A stretch of DNA of 64,000 bases from an uncultured bacterium. GTDB lineage: Bacteria; Sysuimicrobiota; Sysuimicrobiia; Sysuimicrobiales; Sysuimicrobiaceae. Shown piece by piece: positions 11,175 to 64,000 of the stretch. The stretch lies in assembly GCA_964437095.1 (NCBI GenBank), contig CAYTFH010000014.1, positions 1,428-65,427 of the forward strand. The letters run 5' to 3'. Position 1 is the first letter of the stretch. The number at the start of each line of letters is the position of its first letter. The notes beneath the pieces are model-generated. The model saw only the letters and a program-made list of their open reading frames with translations, had not been told where the DNA came from and did not search any database. The translations under genes were made by a program, and so were the position numbers.

Positions 11175-12701
11175 TCAGGTCCCGTTGCGGATGCGCCAGC
11201 GGCTGCCGCCGGGGTAGTCCTCCACGGACACCCCCAGGTCCGCCAACCGTTGCCGGATGCGGTCCGCGGTGGCGAAGTCCCGGCGCTCCCGGGCCCTCTG
11301 CCGGACCTCCAGGACCCGGTCCAGCACCGCCTCGGGAGATCCCTCGCCGTCCACCTCCCGCAAAGCTTCCTCTTCTTGCAGCAGGCGCCGCAGGGCGGCC
11401 ACCAGGGACGGGGGCACGGGCTGTGTGAGCCGCAGGCCCAGTACACCCGCCAGCTCCCGCAGGACGTCCCGCGCTTCCGCCACCGCCTCCACCGCCTCTT
11501 CCGGCGATCCCGCGTCGGGCTGCCGCTTAGCCAGGGCGTCGGTGAGCCGGTTGACCTCCGCCGCAAGGCCGTGCAGGGCCGCGATGGCCGAGGGGGTGTC
11601 GAAGTCGTCGTCCAACGCCGCGCGGAAGGCCTCCCGGAACCTGGCCACCTCCTCCCGCAGGCGCTGGGCCGTCGCGGAACTGCGCCCCGAGGGCCGGGTG
11701 CGGCGCAGCAGGGTGTCCGCGGCCTCCACCGCGGCCCGCAGGTGGCCCGCGCCCCGCTCCGCGGAGGCCACGGCCTCCTCCCGCCACGTCATGGGGCTGC
11801 GGTAGTGGGAGCTGAGCAGGAACAGCCGGATGCCGTCGGGGCGGTACCGACTCAAGGCGTCCTGGATCCACACCACGTTGCCCAGAGAACGCGTCATGCG
11901 CTCCTCCTGGCCCTCCATGCGGAGGTGCGCGTTGTGCAGCCAGTACTTCACGAAGGGCTTGCCCGTGTAGCACTCGCTCTGGGCGATCTCGTTCTCGTGG
12001 TGGGGGAAGATGACGTCCTCCCCGCCCCCGTGGATGTCCAGCTGTTCTCCCAGGTACGCCATGGACATGGCCGAGCACTCGATGTGCCAGCCGGGCCGGC
12101 CCGGCCCCCACGGGCTCGGCCAGGAGGGCTCGCCCGGCTTGGCCGCCTTCCACAGGGCGAAGTCCATGGGGTGCTCCTTACGCGGGTCCACCTCCACCCG
12201 GGCGCCCGCCTGCAGCTCGTCCAACGAGCGGCCGGAGAGCTTCCCGTAGTGGGGGTCGGAGGTGACCCGGAAGTACACGTCCCCGTCCACCACGTACGCG
12301 TGGCCCCGGGCCAGCAGCCCCTCCACGATCCGCACCATCTGCGGGATGTGCTCGGTGGCGCGGGGGTAGTGGTGGGCCCTCAGCACGTTCAGGGCGTCCA
12401 TCTCCCGCAGGAACCGTTCGATGTACTCCCGCGCGATGGACTCCAGGCTGCGGCCCTCCCGCTGCGCCCGGGCGATGATCTTGTCCTCGATGTCGGTGAA
12501 GTTCTGCACGTGGCGCACCCGGTACCCCGACCACTCCAGGTGCCGGCGGACCACGTCGAAGAACAGGTAGCTGCGGGCGTGGCCCACGTGGGCAGGGCCG
12601 TGCAGGTTCACCCCGCACACGTACATCCTCACCTCGGGCGGGTTGTGCGGATCGAAGGGTTCCTTGCGACGGGTCAGGGTGTTGGTCACGTACAGGGCCA
12701 A
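11175..12701 (-). CDS. cysS: cysteine--tRNA ligase
   Basis: Taken from ORF 11175..12722. The motifs are MYVCGVNLHGPAHVGHARSY (HIGH-type) and ERMTRSLGN (KMSKS-type). The preferred start is TTG 12701 (MALYVTNTLTRRKEPF), with GGAGG 6 nt upstream. TTG 12722 (TTGA overlap with ispF) is the alternative. Confidence 0.9.
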   Translation of the reverse strand: MALYVTNTLTRRKEPFDPHNPPEVRMYVCGVNLHGPAHVGHARSYLFFDVVRRHLEWSGYRVRHVQNFTDIEDKIIARAQREGRSLESIAREYIERFLREMDALNVLRAHHYPRATEHIPQMVRIVEGLLARGHAYVVDGDVYFRVTSDPHYGKLSGRSLDELQAGARVEVDPRKEHPMDFALWKAAKPGEPSWPSPWGPGRPGWHIECSAMSMAYLGEQLDIHGGGEDVIFPHHENEIAQSECYTGKPFVKYWLHNAHLRMEGQEERMTRSLGNVVWIQDALSRYRPDGIRLFLLSSHYRSPMTWREEAVASAERGAGHLRAAVEAADTLLRRTRPSGRSSATAQRLREEVARFREAFRAALDDDFDTPSAIAALHGLAAEVNRLTDALAKRQPDAGSPEEAVEAVAEARDVLRELAGVLGLRLTQPVPPSLVAALRRLLQEEEALREVDGEGSPEAVLDRVLEVRQRARERRDFATADRIRQRLADLGVSVEDYPGGSRWRIRNGT

Positions 12702-12718
12702 GGCGGACCTCCGACGTT

Positions 12719-13201
12719 TCAACTCGTCCCCACGGGCTCCACCAGCGCCACCGCCAGGGCCGCGATGCCTTCCCCGCGGCCCAGGGCTCCCAGCCCCTCG
12801 GGGGTGGTGGCCTTCACCCCCACCGCCTCAGGAGGCAGGCCCAGGCGGGCCGCCAGGGTCTGCCGCATCCGGGGCAGGTACTCCGCCAGACGGGGCTGCT
12901 GGGCCACCACCACGCAGTCTACCTGGACCACCCGCCAGCCCGCCTGCCGCGCCCGGTCCAGCACCCGGTCCAGCAGGTTCAAGCTGTCGGCGCCCTCGTA
13001 GGCGGGGTCCGTGGGCGGGAACAGGGTGCCGATGTCGGGCAGGCCGCACGCGCCCAGGACCGCGTCCATGACCGCGTGGGTGAGGGCGTCCGCGTCGCTG
13101 TGCCCCGCGAGCCCCAACTCGTACGGCACCACCACGCCTCCCAGGACCAGCCGGCGTCCGGGGCTCAGGGGGTGCACGTCGTAGCCGATGCCCACCCTCA
13201 C
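12719..13201 (-). CDS. ispF: 2-C-methyl-D-erythritol 2,4-cyclodiphosphate synthase
   Basis: The product reads RVGIGYDVHPL...LGGV.VP....L.GHSDADALTHAVMDA.LGA....DIG..FP. The start was placed at GTG 13201, a GTGA overlap with the ispD stop. The ORF extends to 13213. Confidence 0.9.
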   Translation of the reverse strand: MRVGIGYDVHPLSPGRRLVLGGVVVPYELGLAGHSDADALTHAVMDAVLGACGLPDIGTLFPPTDPAYEGADSLNLLDRVLDRARQAGWRVVQVDCVVVAQQPRLAEYLPRMRQTLAARLGLPPEAVGVKATTPEGLGALGRGEGIAALAVALVEPVGTS

Positions 13202-34584: not shown

Positions 34585-35235
34585 GTGGCGGTAGAGGTCG
34601 TCTTCTTCCACGACGTGCTCTGAGCCTGGTGCTTCATAGCCTCGGAGAGGCTGCGGGAGGCCGTGGAGCCCTATCGCCACCGGGTTGCGGTGAGCCACCG
34701 GAGCTTCGCCCTGGCCCCCGACCCGGGGGCCATCGCCCGCATCTTCGGGAGTGCCGCGGCGGGCAAGGAGGAGATCATGCGCCACTGGGAAGCCGCGCGC
34801 CGGCACGCGGGTGCGGGGCGGGGCAGCCGCATCAACGTGGAGCTCATGCGCGAGCGCCCCTTCCCCTATCCCTACTCGTTGCCGGGGCTCCGGGCCTGCA
34901 AGGCGGCCGAGTTCCAAGCGGGCCAGGAGGGTCACTGGCGCTACTTCGACCGGGTGCAGGAGGCGCACCTCGTCGAGTGCCGGAACATCGCCGAGGAGGA
35001 GGTGCTCCTCGACCTCGCGCGCGAGCTGGGATTTGACGCGGGGCGCTTCGCCGCCGACCTGGGCGGGGAGAGGACCCTCCTGGCCGTGCTGGCCGACTGC
35101 CGGGAGGCGGCGCGCCTCGGCATCCACGCGGTGCCCACGGTGCGGGTGGGTCGGCGCCTGATCCAGGGGGCGGTGCCCGTCGCCACCTACCGCGCCGCCA
35201 TCGAGGAAGCCGCCCAGGGAGAGCTGGCTCCCTAG
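34585..35235 (+). CDS. DsbA/FrnE-like thiol-disulfide oxidoreductase with in-frame TGA (candidate selenocysteine, U-A-W-C) at 34621..34623
   Basis: The start is GTG 34585, with AAGGAGG 9 nt upstream. The reading is MAVEVVFFHDVL-TGA-AWCFIASERLREAVEPYRHRVAVSHRSF..., contiguous and in frame with ORF 34663..35235 (the rest of the DsbA fold, ...IHAVPTVRVG...). The TGA replaces the first Cys of the family's CPWC motif. Confidence 0.7.
34624..34661 (+). promoter_or_regulatory. candidate bacterial SECIS hairpin directly after the in-frame UGA
   Basis: GCCU(34624..34627) pairs with AGGC(34658..34661). The core stem is AGCCUC/GAGGCU (34638..34652) with the apical loop GGA (or CGGAG). The loop centre lies about 20 nt after the UGA. 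Confidence 0.4.
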
Positions 35236-61996: not shown

Positions 61997-62320
61997 CTAG
62001 GTCGGCCGCGCGGACGTCCAGAGGGAAGGCAAGTGTGCGACCCGCTGCCAGCCTTCCCCTTCCCGCACCCGTTCTACCCGGAGGTCGTGGAAGTACGAGT
62101 CCAGCACCGCGGCCCGCTCCATGGCCAGGGGCGGGGAGCAGTAGTCCTCCTCCTCCCACACGGCCTCGCCCGTGCTCGGGTCCAGGCGGGCGTTTCGCAG
62201 TGCGCGGGTGAGGGCGTCCCCGAAAGGCCGCAGGGGCCGGAACTCGTCCCTCCGCAACCGTGCCAGCAGTTCTTCCGCGACCTCCGGCTTCAGGCGCCCG
62301 CGGACCAGGTAGTACGCCAT
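61997..62320 (-). CDS. hypothetical protein (107 aa)
   Basis: ATG 62320 has a strong RBS (GAGGAGG 7 nt upstream). The product starts MAYYLVRGRLKPEVAEELLARLRRDEF.... I recognised no family. Confidence 0.6.
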   Translation of the reverse strand: MAYYLVRGRLKPEVAEELLARLRRDEFRPLRPFGDALTRALRNARLDPSTGEAVWEEEDYCSPPLAMERAAVLDSYFHDLRVERVREGEGWQRVAHLPSLWTSARPT

Positions 62321-62510
62321 GGTTCCACCTCCTCTTTGTTCCCGCAACCCGGCCGACCCGTGGAGTGCCCGCAGCAACGCCTCCACGGACTCCCCCAGAG
62401 CCGGGCCCCTGGGGCCACCTCGCGGCCTGCACCACCGACAGTATGAGCCACCTAAGGTCTCCGCAGCCAACAAAGCGCGTCCGAGTCGGCCCCGGATCCT
62501 CCCGCTAAAC

Positions 62511-62776
62511 TGTCAACCCTAGCTCAAAATTGACCCGCAGCGCCAACTTGCATTTGCCCCACCTGGGTCCTAACGTAGGGGATCGGTGTGCTTGCCCGCG
62601 GTCCCCTCCTCTGGGGCAGGCGAGATCCGAACAGGCCGCGGGCTTTTTCTCCCTCACGCGGTCGCTCTCGCCCGCATGCTGATGACGAGGCCGTGGTGTA
62701 GCAGTCGGTCCACGGTGGCGGTGGCGATGATGCCATCACCGCGCACGCCCCACACGCGGTGGCCTTCCGGGTTCCC
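62511..62776 (-). mobile_element. IS21-family remnant: 3' fragment of istB plus lower-GC putative terminal sequence
   Basis: The tail of ORF 62654..63037 reads ...WGVRGDGIIATATVDRLLHHGLVISMRA, matching the conserved IstB C-terminus (W..FGD...A.A..DRL.HH). The lower-GC stretch downstream on that strand, starting TGTCAACCCTAGCTCAAAATTGACC at 62511, is compatible with an IS end. No intact transposase is present. Confidence 0.4.
62594..62650 (+). terminator. orphan terminator-like structure (GCCCGCGG ... CCGCGGGC + TTTTT)
   Basis: The 8-bp stem arms lie at 62594..62601 and 62636..62643, enclosing a 34-nt insert with an inner CCCC/GGGG hairpin. TTTTT follows at 62644..62648. No plus-strand gene ends here. 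Confidence 0.3.
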
Positions 62777-62805
62777 CAACCTCCGCGGACGACCTCCGGG
62801 CCCTC

Positions 62806-62950
62806 GTGCGGCCATGGACCGGGCCGAGCTGTCCGCTGTCCACCAGGGCCAGGCGCATCGCGGCCGTCCGCCGCCTCTACCGGTGGTCCAAAGACCAGCC
62901 GGGCACCCGTGCCATCTTCGCAGATCCTCCTGGTCCCTTCCTCCTGAAGA
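62806..62950 (+). pseudogene. fragment resembling the N-terminal (SAM-like) domain of a tyrosine recombinase/integrase
   Basis: ORF 62806..63039 contains LSTRARRIAAVRRLYRWS, which resembles the ARRL.ALR.FYR.L helix of XerC/D-type integrases. No catalytic domain follows. Confidence 0.3.
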
Positions 62951-63036
62951 CCCTCTCAGAGAGGGCCGGGATCTATTCCCCTGGAGGCGCCCGCCGCAAA
63001 GATCATCCGCGAGATCCACCAGGAAGAGCAAGCCCA

Positions 63037-63115
63037 TGAGAGGACGCTCGAGGGCCTACGTCCTTGACGCCTACGCAGCGCTCGCCTGGCTGGTGAACGA
63101 CGAGGAAAAGGAAAA
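63037..63115 (+). pseudogene. truncated PIN-domain (VapC-like) toxin N-terminus
   Basis: ATG 63037 gives MRGRSRAYVLDAYAALAWLVNDEEKEK, the typical first strand and Asp of VapC toxins. The reading then runs into the 3' end of the convergent methyltransferase gene. The ATG overlaps an upstream stop as ATGA. Confidence 0.35.
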
Positions 63116-63158
63116 GTGCGTGCCACCTCCAGGACCACGCGTGAAGGTTCTGGCTCTT

Positions 63159-64000
63159 CACCGTCCGGCAGGGGTCTCCGGCTTGCGCGCGGTGAAGACG
63201 AGGGAGCGGGCCACCCTTGCTTGCCGCTCCTGCGGGATCAGCCCGCGCATCAGGGCGATGAGCTCCGGTGTGAACAGCGGGTACTGCGCGCACTCGTCCA
63301 CTCCGAAGAGACGTTCCTCTCCACGGCGGATCTCGGTGAACCCGACGTTCTTCAGTTTGCCGACGAAGACACGCTCCGCCAGGGCGCCCGAGAGTCACCC
63401 CGCCCACGCCGCGGGGTTGGTCAGGCTCTCGGGCGGCAGGTCGTCGTCCACCACGAGGTCCGCGACCACCATCCGCCCACCGGGTCGCAGGATGCGGAAG
63501 ATCTCGGAAAAGGCCCGTGATTTGCGCGGGGACAGATTGATCACCCCGTTGCTGATCACCACGTCCACGCTGGCGCCCGGGAAAGGAATCGCCTCGATCT
63601 GCCCGAGCCCCCAGTCGACGTTGCGCACGCCAGCCTCCACGGCGTGGCGTGCGGCCACCTCGAGCATCTCCGCAAGCATGTCCAGCCCGATCGCCCTGCT
63701 ACCGGCGCTACGGCCCGGGCGGCCAGGAGGGTGTCGATTCCACCGCCGCAGCCCAGGTCCACGACCACCTCACCCGGCCGCAGGCTCGCTACCCGCACCG
63801 GGTTGCCGACGCCCAGGGCCTGCTCGATGGCGCCCCGGGGCAGGTGTGCGAGCTGTTCAGGATCGTAGAGCGTTTCAGCGACGCCGCTGCCGGCGCCGAC
63901 CACCTGTCGGTAAGCCTGCCGGCCCACCTCGCGCACCGCCTCCTGGCCGAGCAGGTCGTCCCGACCGGTGCTGGTGGATGCTCTCCGCGACGGCTCACGC
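63159..64000 (-). CDS. ArsM/UbiE-like SAM-dependent methyltransferase with in-frame TGA (candidate selenocysteine) at 63395..63397; also a 1-nt frameshift near 63695..63715; 5' end outside window
   Basis: Three collinear minus-strand pieces make up the gene:
- ...[47 protein letters not shown]...[22 protein letters not shown] (frame of ORF 63556..63936)
- [30 protein letters not shown]...[19 protein letters not shown]...[13 protein letters not shown]...NPAAWAG (ORF 63395..63679)
- then TGA, then in frame [24 protein letters not shown]...[11 protein letters not shown], with the stop at 63159..63161. Confidence 0.65.

Follow-up and report, generated by a model that had tools for sequence, protein, structure and literature searches.

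A predicted single-selenocysteine ArsM-like methyltransferase family in an ECF-sigma operon of Armatimonadota, with a probably pseudogenised copy in a 64-kb metagenomic stretch

The 64,000-nucleotide (nt) stretch of DNA analysed here (the window; contig CAYTFH010000014.1 of an uncultured bacterium) carries near its end, on the minus strand, a gene for an ArsM-like S-adenosylmethionine (SAM) methyltransferase that contains an in-frame TGA. A first-pass annotation, made without database searches, had reported this TGA, which is indeed present, and had proposed that it encodes selenocysteine (Sec) in an intact selenoprotein gene. Our results point to a different history for the gene. The account that we favour, and that we consider probable with good confidence, is that Sec and a selenocysteine insertion sequence (SECIS) element are properties of the family, which is encoded in an operon led by an extracytoplasmic function (ECF) sigma factor gene, while the copy in the window is a recent pseudogene.

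The case for Sec is made by the relatives of the gene. When the frame-repaired conceptual protein was compared with 5.8 billion proteins, the matches included dozens of relatives that are 76-81% identical and 196-201 amino acids (aa) long, every one of which ends in ...AAWAG, together with a few full-length relatives of 274-278 aa that read AAWAGCLSGAL (Cys forms, including P0001-P0003). It had been left to be checked whether close homologues end at the TGA and whether the codons after it are conserved: the called proteins do end there, but the DNA of the relatives continues in frame. Among 36 related loci surveyed at the DNA level, the codon at this site is TGA in 31 and TGC in five, with no TAA or TAG, and in every complete case it is followed by an in-frame tail of 72-87 conserved codons. 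Beyond the hairpin described below, the variable sites in the tail of 24 distinct Sec-form sequences number 29, 21 and 57 at codon positions 1, 2 and 3, respectively. The same third-position-dominated pattern is seen upstream (65, 48 and 142), so the tail is translated in the organisms with the Sec form. Because only TGA or TGC occurs at the codon, and because the conserved in-frame tail varies mostly at third positions, we read the methyltransferase family as a genuine Sec/Cys pair. Both hallmarks of a bacterial selenoprotein, a UGA facing Cys in close homologues and coding conservation downstream of it, are found here, and the Sec proposal holds at the level of the family through the Cys orthologues, the translated tail and the SECIS element.

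The encoded protein has a class-I SAM-binding methyltransferase domain (Pfam Methyltransf_31, Methyltransf_11 and Methyltransf_25, with a DLGCGGG motif), matches ArsM structures in the PDB at E=4e-27 and is 74-81% identical to its Armatimonadota orthologues. Against the NCBIfam model PRK11873/NF008823 the frameshift-repaired conceptual protein, used without about 20 N-terminal residues, scores 217.6 bits, below the cut-off of 263. In an alignment with crystallised ArsM (4FR0 and 5EVJ), the TGA stands opposite the Cys of GECL(A/G)GAL, which by counting in the alignment is C224 of CmArsM, in agreement with the first-pass annotation, which had placed the TGA on a conserved ArsM Cys. We take human AS3MT C206 to be the equivalent of this position. 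The annotation had also remarked on missing ArsM cysteines (GCGNP to GVGNP and SNC to SNG), and the alignment bears this out: the V of GVGNP lies at CmArsM C72, the G of ISNGVINL (SNG) lies at C174, and there is no N-terminal Cys in any member of the aligned GVGNP/SNG clade. Among the conserved cysteines of ArsM (CmArsM C44, C72, C174 and C224), only the C224 position is kept, as Sec. One out of four falls short of the working criterion of the field for canonical ArsM/AS3MT, which asks for at least three of the four conserved cysteines (PMC5552862), and this clade is probably not one of canonical arsenite methyltransferases, to judge by its sequences. A Sec in U-x-x-G at the C224-equivalent position is what characterises arsenite methyltransferase selenoproteins (PMC13188914, Table 1). 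The open frame after the TGA exists as had been described, although its length is 78 sense codons rather than 77, the last one at 63161-63163 being followed by a stop at 63158-63160; the ancestral GTG start lies at 63996-63998.

Downstream of the UGA lies a hairpin, H1, which we infer to be a SelB-dependent bacterial SECIS (bSECIS). It occupies nt 16-38 counted from the U of the UGA and so begins 12 nt past that codon, with an apical loop, CGUGU, at 63369-63373 and a UGA-to-loop spacing of 21 nt. Across 23 distinct sequences H1 is 98.6% paired, against 25-66% for slid controls; two of its pairs have changed on both sides in a compensatory way (C-G to U-A and G-C to C-G), and RNAalifold predicts exactly this helix and nothing else. 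Furthermore, the stretch GGCGGAGCGUGUCUUCG is unchanged in all TGA-bearing sequences, synonymous sites included, and synonymous codon diversity, which averages 0.40 over the gene, drops to 0 over codons +6 to +12, the minimum among the windows along 222 codons. With a folding energy of -9.6 kcal/mol (z = -2.6), H1 lies inside the published bSECIS model on every count: a loop of 3-9 nt, a stem of 4-16 base pairs (bp), a G in the first two loop positions, a UGA-to-loop distance of 16-37 nt and a folding energy no higher than -7.5 kcal/mol (PMC13188914, section 5). Rfam gave no SECIS match and no matching family at gathering or permissive thresholds. A single-sequence fold of the 70 nt past the UGA has a z of about 0 and is uninformative in this 72% GC sequence, so that comparative data were needed to recognise a SECIS. 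The hairpin originally proposed as the SECIS, here called H2 (63347-63370, minus strand; mapped by us to 63349-63369, UCUUCGU...AC-U-GAAGA), overlaps the 3' arm of H1 and can be drawn, but the comparative data speak against it, since it is 82% paired with no compensatory changes, does not rise above shuffles and is surpassed by a slid control (+3) at 85.7%. As for the Cys forms, synonymous changes break four of the nine H1 pairs in the divergent form L053, in which the hairpin is lost; the recently converted form L027 (TGC) still has the complete H1.

In all relatives with enough upstream sequence, the methyltransferase gene is the third cistron of an operon, after genes for an ECF sigma factor and a zf-HC2 anti-sigma factor, with overlapping stop and start codons. 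We hold with high confidence that this operon has recently been pseudogenised in the window. The intact gene of the first-pass annotation had been read in a single frame; two frameshifts lie upstream of its TGA, and its operon partners are broken (Table 1). Deletion 1 splits the N-terminus (...HPPAPVG / DDLLGQ...) with a switch from frame 2 to frame 1 and is reproduced in Logan assemblies; deletion 2 falls within ...AVAP-x-G/S-R-AIGLDM..., just past SAM motif I, and is identical in L062 and L063. The coding sequence is thereby divided among three frames, an N-terminal peptide, a middle part (DDLLGQ...AVAP) and the TGA-bearing part (SRAIGLDM...), and the signal of G+C at third codon positions (GC3) switches accordingly. 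The open frame upstream of the TGA amounts to 124 aa, whereas relatives for which enough upstream sequence exists have more than 200 aa there and a frame uninterrupted apart from the UGA. Logan assemblies of three runs (SRR11582145, SRR11582147 and SRR11582148) match the window at 99.96-100% identity with zero gaps.

The 5' end beyond position 64000, which had been called for as the missing part of the gene, is supplied by L063, which reaches 2940 nt further and contains lesions in both the anti-sigma and the sigma gene. The anti-sigma gene, whose ancestral stop (TGA, 63995-63997) overlaps the methyltransferase start within GTGA, has TGG changed to TAG at an invariant Trp about 230 nt past the window end (TGG in 12 out of the 12 relatives giving a match), and a +29-nt change at its 3' side has left a frameshifted end without the stop. 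The sigma gene of the window lineage has an in-frame TAG and contains r4_2 only, with no detectable Sigma70 region 2, whereas the intact relative L024 has r2 plus r4_2 (54.8 bits for region 2). TAG codons and base substitutions are not homopolymer artefacts, and TAG does not encode Sec. On the other side, the 12 flanking genes are normal in length and domain content, and a crude GC3 scan of the whole window found no other convincing frame switch while recovering the 63.7-kb site as a positive control. Changes at otherwise invariant residues are most numerous in the window copy, which has five, the next copies having four and three; since this excess is small, the inactivation would be recent. 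The promoter-like motif described below, the UGA and H1 are still present at the window locus.

Table 1. Positions in the window of the methyltransferase gene, its elements and lesions, and of the DsbA-like gene
Feature	Position	Strand	Basis or remark
ArsM-like SAM methyltransferase, ancestral Sec form, now very probably a pseudogene	63158..63998	-	PRK11873, Pfam and PDB ArsM matches; frame split three ways
Predicted ancestral Sec codon, UGA	63395..63397	-	Motif AAWAG-U-LSG (UxxG), equivalent to CmArsM C224; 36-locus codon count and ArsM alignment
Post-UGA C-terminal codons, n=78 (ArsM C-domain remnant)	63161..63394	-	Kept in all relatives
Putative bSECIS hairpin H1, CUGGCGGAG-CGUGU-CUUCGUCGG	63360..63382	-	9-bp stem; pairing, covariation, RNAalifold
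Single-base deletion 1, in G run (CCGGTCGG-GACGAC)	about 63960-63962	-	MAFFT alignment with 13 intact relatives
Single-base deletion 2 (GCGCCGG-TAGCAGG)	63701..63703 (63701/63702)	-	MAFFT alignment; GC3 frame switch
zf-HC2 anti-sigma gene, 3' end (remainder beyond window end)	63995..64000	-	L063 extension
DsbA-like selenoprotein gene (UxxC), intact	34585-35235	+	TGA 34621-34623; motif FFHDVL-U-AWC

A second TGA on a Cys position had been reported in the window, and this claim also stands: it belongs to the DsbA-like gene of Table 1, which starts at a GTG 12 codons ahead of the UGA and has GGAGG as its ribosome-binding site. A hairpin (GCCUC-GGA-GAGGC) at 34638-34652, the loop of which begins 20 nt past the UGA, follows, and both TGA and hairpin are kept in an 86%-identical relative (L066). 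The database calls for this gene (P0121 and P0122) are N-terminally truncated. According to a 2026 study, metagenome-assembled genomes (MAGs) of Armatimonadota contain Sec-type hydrogenases, tRNA-Sec and tRNA-ReC-like tRNAs (PMC13582414), and this report of tRNA-Sec, together with the intact UxxC gene, provides indirect support for Sec decoding. The phylum is indicated by the CysS gene of the window (11175-12722, minus strand), next to which lies an RlmB-like gene and whose relatives, 92-96% identical, are found in JGI, Logan and NCBI Armatimonadota MAGs: the NCBI names of the relatives and the 92% identity of CysS to named MAGs assign the clade as well as the window to Armatimonadota. An affinity to Bacillota, suggested by the neighbours of the DsbA-like relative, was rejected, as CysS says otherwise and the DsbA-like gene alone matches that contig.

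In a neighbour-joining (NJ) tree of the clade, which is indicative only, the Cys-bearing outgroups and P0003 are basal, the window copy diverges early among the Sec forms, and two Cys forms, L027 and L053, arise from within that group. This topology suggests that Sec was gained from Cys once, reverted at least twice and was lost once through pseudogenisation. The nearest neighbours in the tree are L027-L029 and L044 (bacterium HR32 type, TGC) and L049 and L057 (TGA), and the complete H1 of the L027-type Cys form, as a fossil SECIS, indicates a very recent reversion from Sec to Cys. Such Sec-to-Cys substitutions are called rare in bacteria by a 2026 review.

It would be tempting to regard the TGA as an ordinary stop or a chance nonsense mutation, with the downstream frame as a separate small gene or non-coding sequence, as called proteins stop there and a 68-aa open reading frame (ORF) is annotated downstream in one case. 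On the comparisons given above this reading is already contradicted, and we accord it practically no chance of being right, because the 31 interrupted loci without exception have TGA at the identical codon, never TAA or TAG, the Cys forms run on uninterrupted, and the tail, which varies in the manner of coding sequence, can be aligned with the ArsM C-domain. A subtler reading is that the UGA, with its SECIS, is decoded at least partly as Cys by a tRNA-ReC-like tRNA in Armatimonadota. Such tRNAs occur with canonical tRNA-Sec in five out of the five Armatimonadota genomes that have UXXU hydrogenases (PMC13582414), Sec and Cys forms interconvert readily in the clade, and L027 combines TGC with the SECIS. 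Nevertheless, we judge it unlikely: the co-occurring tRNA-Sec in those published genomes is of the canonical kind, neither kind of tRNA was found in the window or the fetched loci, and 23 distinct sequences have strictly retained both TGA and SECIS, which speaks for a benefit beyond that of Cys.

The remaining alternative concerns the window copy, which might be an intact and expressed selenoprotein gene if the frameshifts were sequencing or assembly errors at G/C runs. Both deletions do lie in short G runs, the protein is still highly conserved (74-81% identity), the UGA and SECIS are intact, and the excess of unusual substitutions is small. However, the identical, gap-free sequence in independent assemblies from three runs, the unaffected neighbouring genes and the lesions outside homopolymers (TGG to TAG in the anti-sigma gene, the in-frame TAG and the loss of r2 in the sigma gene) make this very unlikely in our opinion. 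The favoured account of a Sec family with a pseudogenised window copy is not free of difficulties, and several points weigh against it. Neither SelA, SelB or SelD (by motif) nor tRNA-Sec (by tRNA scan) was found in the 64-kb window or in 18 loci and their fetched flanks. Most stem positions of H1 are invariant, so that covariation is seen at two out of nine pairs. Given the small excess of unusual substitutions, the decay must be very recent; the three Logan assemblies come from one sample series, not from independent populations, and a systematic sequencing artefact at G/C runs is formally conceivable. Also, the enzymatic function of the family is in its entirety something that we infer.

The surroundings of the operon offer some hints on that function. 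Intact relatives encode an ECF sigma factor with r2 plus r4_2, and an anti-sigma factor with the zf-HC2 motif H-x3-C-x2-C (EEHLGLCRHCC). The ECF sigma gene is preceded in more than 25 loci by a conserved promoter-like motif, (T/C)GCAATAA-N16-CGTCT, found for the window lineage at 2022-2050 of L063, about 890-920 nt past the window end; it is probably the autoregulated ECF promoter. In L036 and L038 a second copy of the motif runs in the opposite direction, and in the HR32 group the motif stands upstream of OsmC. Genes of the OsmC type, of an AhpD/CMD-like peroxidase family and for cupins recur beside the operon on the same strand. In about 16 loci the AhpD/CMD-like gene lies directly 3' of the methyltransferase (L024 10857-11441 and equivalents), and this neighbour has a single conserved Cys (STYCVLVYA), not CxxU. 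The 20-kb flanks of the methyltransferase loci showed no ars genes, and the ars-operon context that goes with ArsM is lacking there. SigR/RsrA-type pairs of an ECF sigma factor and a zinc-binding anti-sigma (ZAS) factor are thiol-stress modules. The present clade appears similar to them in its ECF sigma factor (r2, r4_2), small zf-HC2 anti-sigma factor, promoter-like motif and antioxidant-type neighbours, although the sigma and anti-sigma genes have been inactivated in the window lineage, unlike in SigR/RsrA modules.

Sec at the UxxG site of ArsM is already established and not new. Eight arsenite-methyltransferase-family selenoproteins were found in the Global Ocean Sampling (GOS) survey (PMC2398784) and others in 39 genomes by Peng et al. 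2016 (PMC5029168); Sec-containing UxxG proteins of the ArsM family have been catalogued since 2007-2008, and the listing in a 2026 review counts the family (motif UxxG) as 'experimentally verified', with reference to Fomenko et al. 2007 (PMC13188914). The present case stands out for its single-Sec subfamily, for the phylum and regulatory context in which this subfamily occurs, and for the decay seen in the window genome. With the arsenite methyltransferase selenoproteins (PRK11873/NF008823) the clade shares the superfamily, the Sec position, the class-I SAM fold and a SECIS immediately downstream. In contrast to them, it scores below the cut-off, lacks the other three cysteines, belongs to Armatimonadota and lies in an ECF-sigma/anti-sigma/OsmC/AhpD-like context rather than in an ars operon, and the window copy is very probably a pseudogene. 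The same listing attributes the NCBIfam models ArsM_AhpD_UU (NF041537), ArsM_DUF2284_UU (NF041536) and MTase_UXPK_star (NF047649) to Haft & Tolstoy 2025 and gives a UxxG Sec motif for each of them (PMC13188914). The methyltransferase domain of these two-domain ArsM selenoproteins is homologous to that of the clade (E=1e-46 to 1e-52), and the AhpD/CMD-like gene next to the clade's methyltransferase echoes the ArsM-AhpD fusion of NF041537. However, the clade protein is a single-domain one of about 274 aa with one Sec and no fused second domain, and its scores against the cut-offs of the two-domain models are 176 vs 510, 157 vs 575 and 172 vs 460. Canonical ArsM/AS3MT (CmArsM, 4FR0; CrArsM, 5EVJ) has the same fold and SAM motifs, with the clade's Sec at the As(III)-binding C224; unlike it, the clade protein has no C-terminal third domain, one out of four cysteines and no ars genes nearby.

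A pattern scan of genome contigs found distant relatives only, at 27-52% identity, two of which have a TGA at the same ArsM codon: the gene in a Gemmataceae MAG (L004 8068) is of the GVGNP/SNG type, and that in Tissierellia bacterium KA00581 (L012 10469) is a canonical GCGNP/SNC ArsM. The occurrence of this TGA in other phyla suggests that Sec at the site recurs across the superfamily.

Canonical ArsM cysteine chemistry would not be usable by the clade, because three of the four ArsM cysteines are missing. On the comparisons above, the product of the intact gene is very probably an ArsM-like SAM methyltransferase of about 274 residues with Sec at the metalloid-binding Cys position (CmArsM C224), the UGA being recoded through the H1 hairpin beginning 12 nt downstream. 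Thiol or oxidative stress would induce the enzyme through the ECF sigma/anti-sigma operon, and its lone selenol might hold or attack a soft electrophile, such as a metalloid, a chalcogen or a thiol-reactive compound, beside the methyl group of SAM. The intact orthologues would accordingly be stress-induced SAM methyltransferases in which a single selenol engages a soft electrophile. A more far-reaching proposal, which we put forward only tentatively and would not bet on, is that the single-Sec clade represents a distinct, stress-induced enzyme of ECF-sigma/ZAS operons with an undescribed selenol chemistry on the ArsM fold and with frequent reversion of Sec to Cys or loss. One possibility within this proposal is the methylation or capture of chalcogen or thiol-reactive electrophiles with OsmC/AhpD-like partners; possibly, too, the Sec-to-Cys reversions and loss have been helped by tRNA-ReC-type decoding in Armatimonadota. 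The H2S and methanethiol methyltransferases MddH and MddM1/2 were considered as functional relatives and set aside, as they are short UbiE/UbiG-type proteins without a link to ArsM and are not homologous.

If the favoured account of a Sec family holds, the 196-201-aa length of dozens of public Armatimonadota proteins is an artefact of truncation at a Sec codon that went unrecognised; a subfamily-specific model that includes the H1 SECIS would fix this, and the window locus should carry a pseudogene annotation. The clade would also offer, in one history, a gain of Sec from Cys, at least two nested reversions, one of them with a fossil SECIS, and the pseudogenisation of a whole operon. Moreover, the coupling of a single-selenol ArsM-fold enzyme to a thiol-stress sigma/anti-sigma pair suggests that the enzyme does something other than methylate arsenic.

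Some further features of the window touch on the decayed operon. A second methyltransferase gene in the window (about 59.1-59.9 kb) was considered as a substituting paralogue and rejected, as it encodes a generic class-I enzyme. The window and L063 differ by five mismatches over 13.5 kb, one of which lies inside the pseudogene at about 63580-63590 (minus strand) and gives IEAIPFPG in the window and IEAIPLPG in L063 and most relatives; this mismatch suggests that the broken gene is polymorphic in the population. No gene is called and no Pfam family matches in the roughly 840 nt (about 62320-63157, minus strand) between the methyltransferase stop and the next called gene. This interval includes an ORF (62654-63037) that ends in ...VDRLLHHGLVISMRA and presumably resembles the C-terminus of the IS21 helper protein IstB; it may be a remnant of a mobile element next to the decayed operon.

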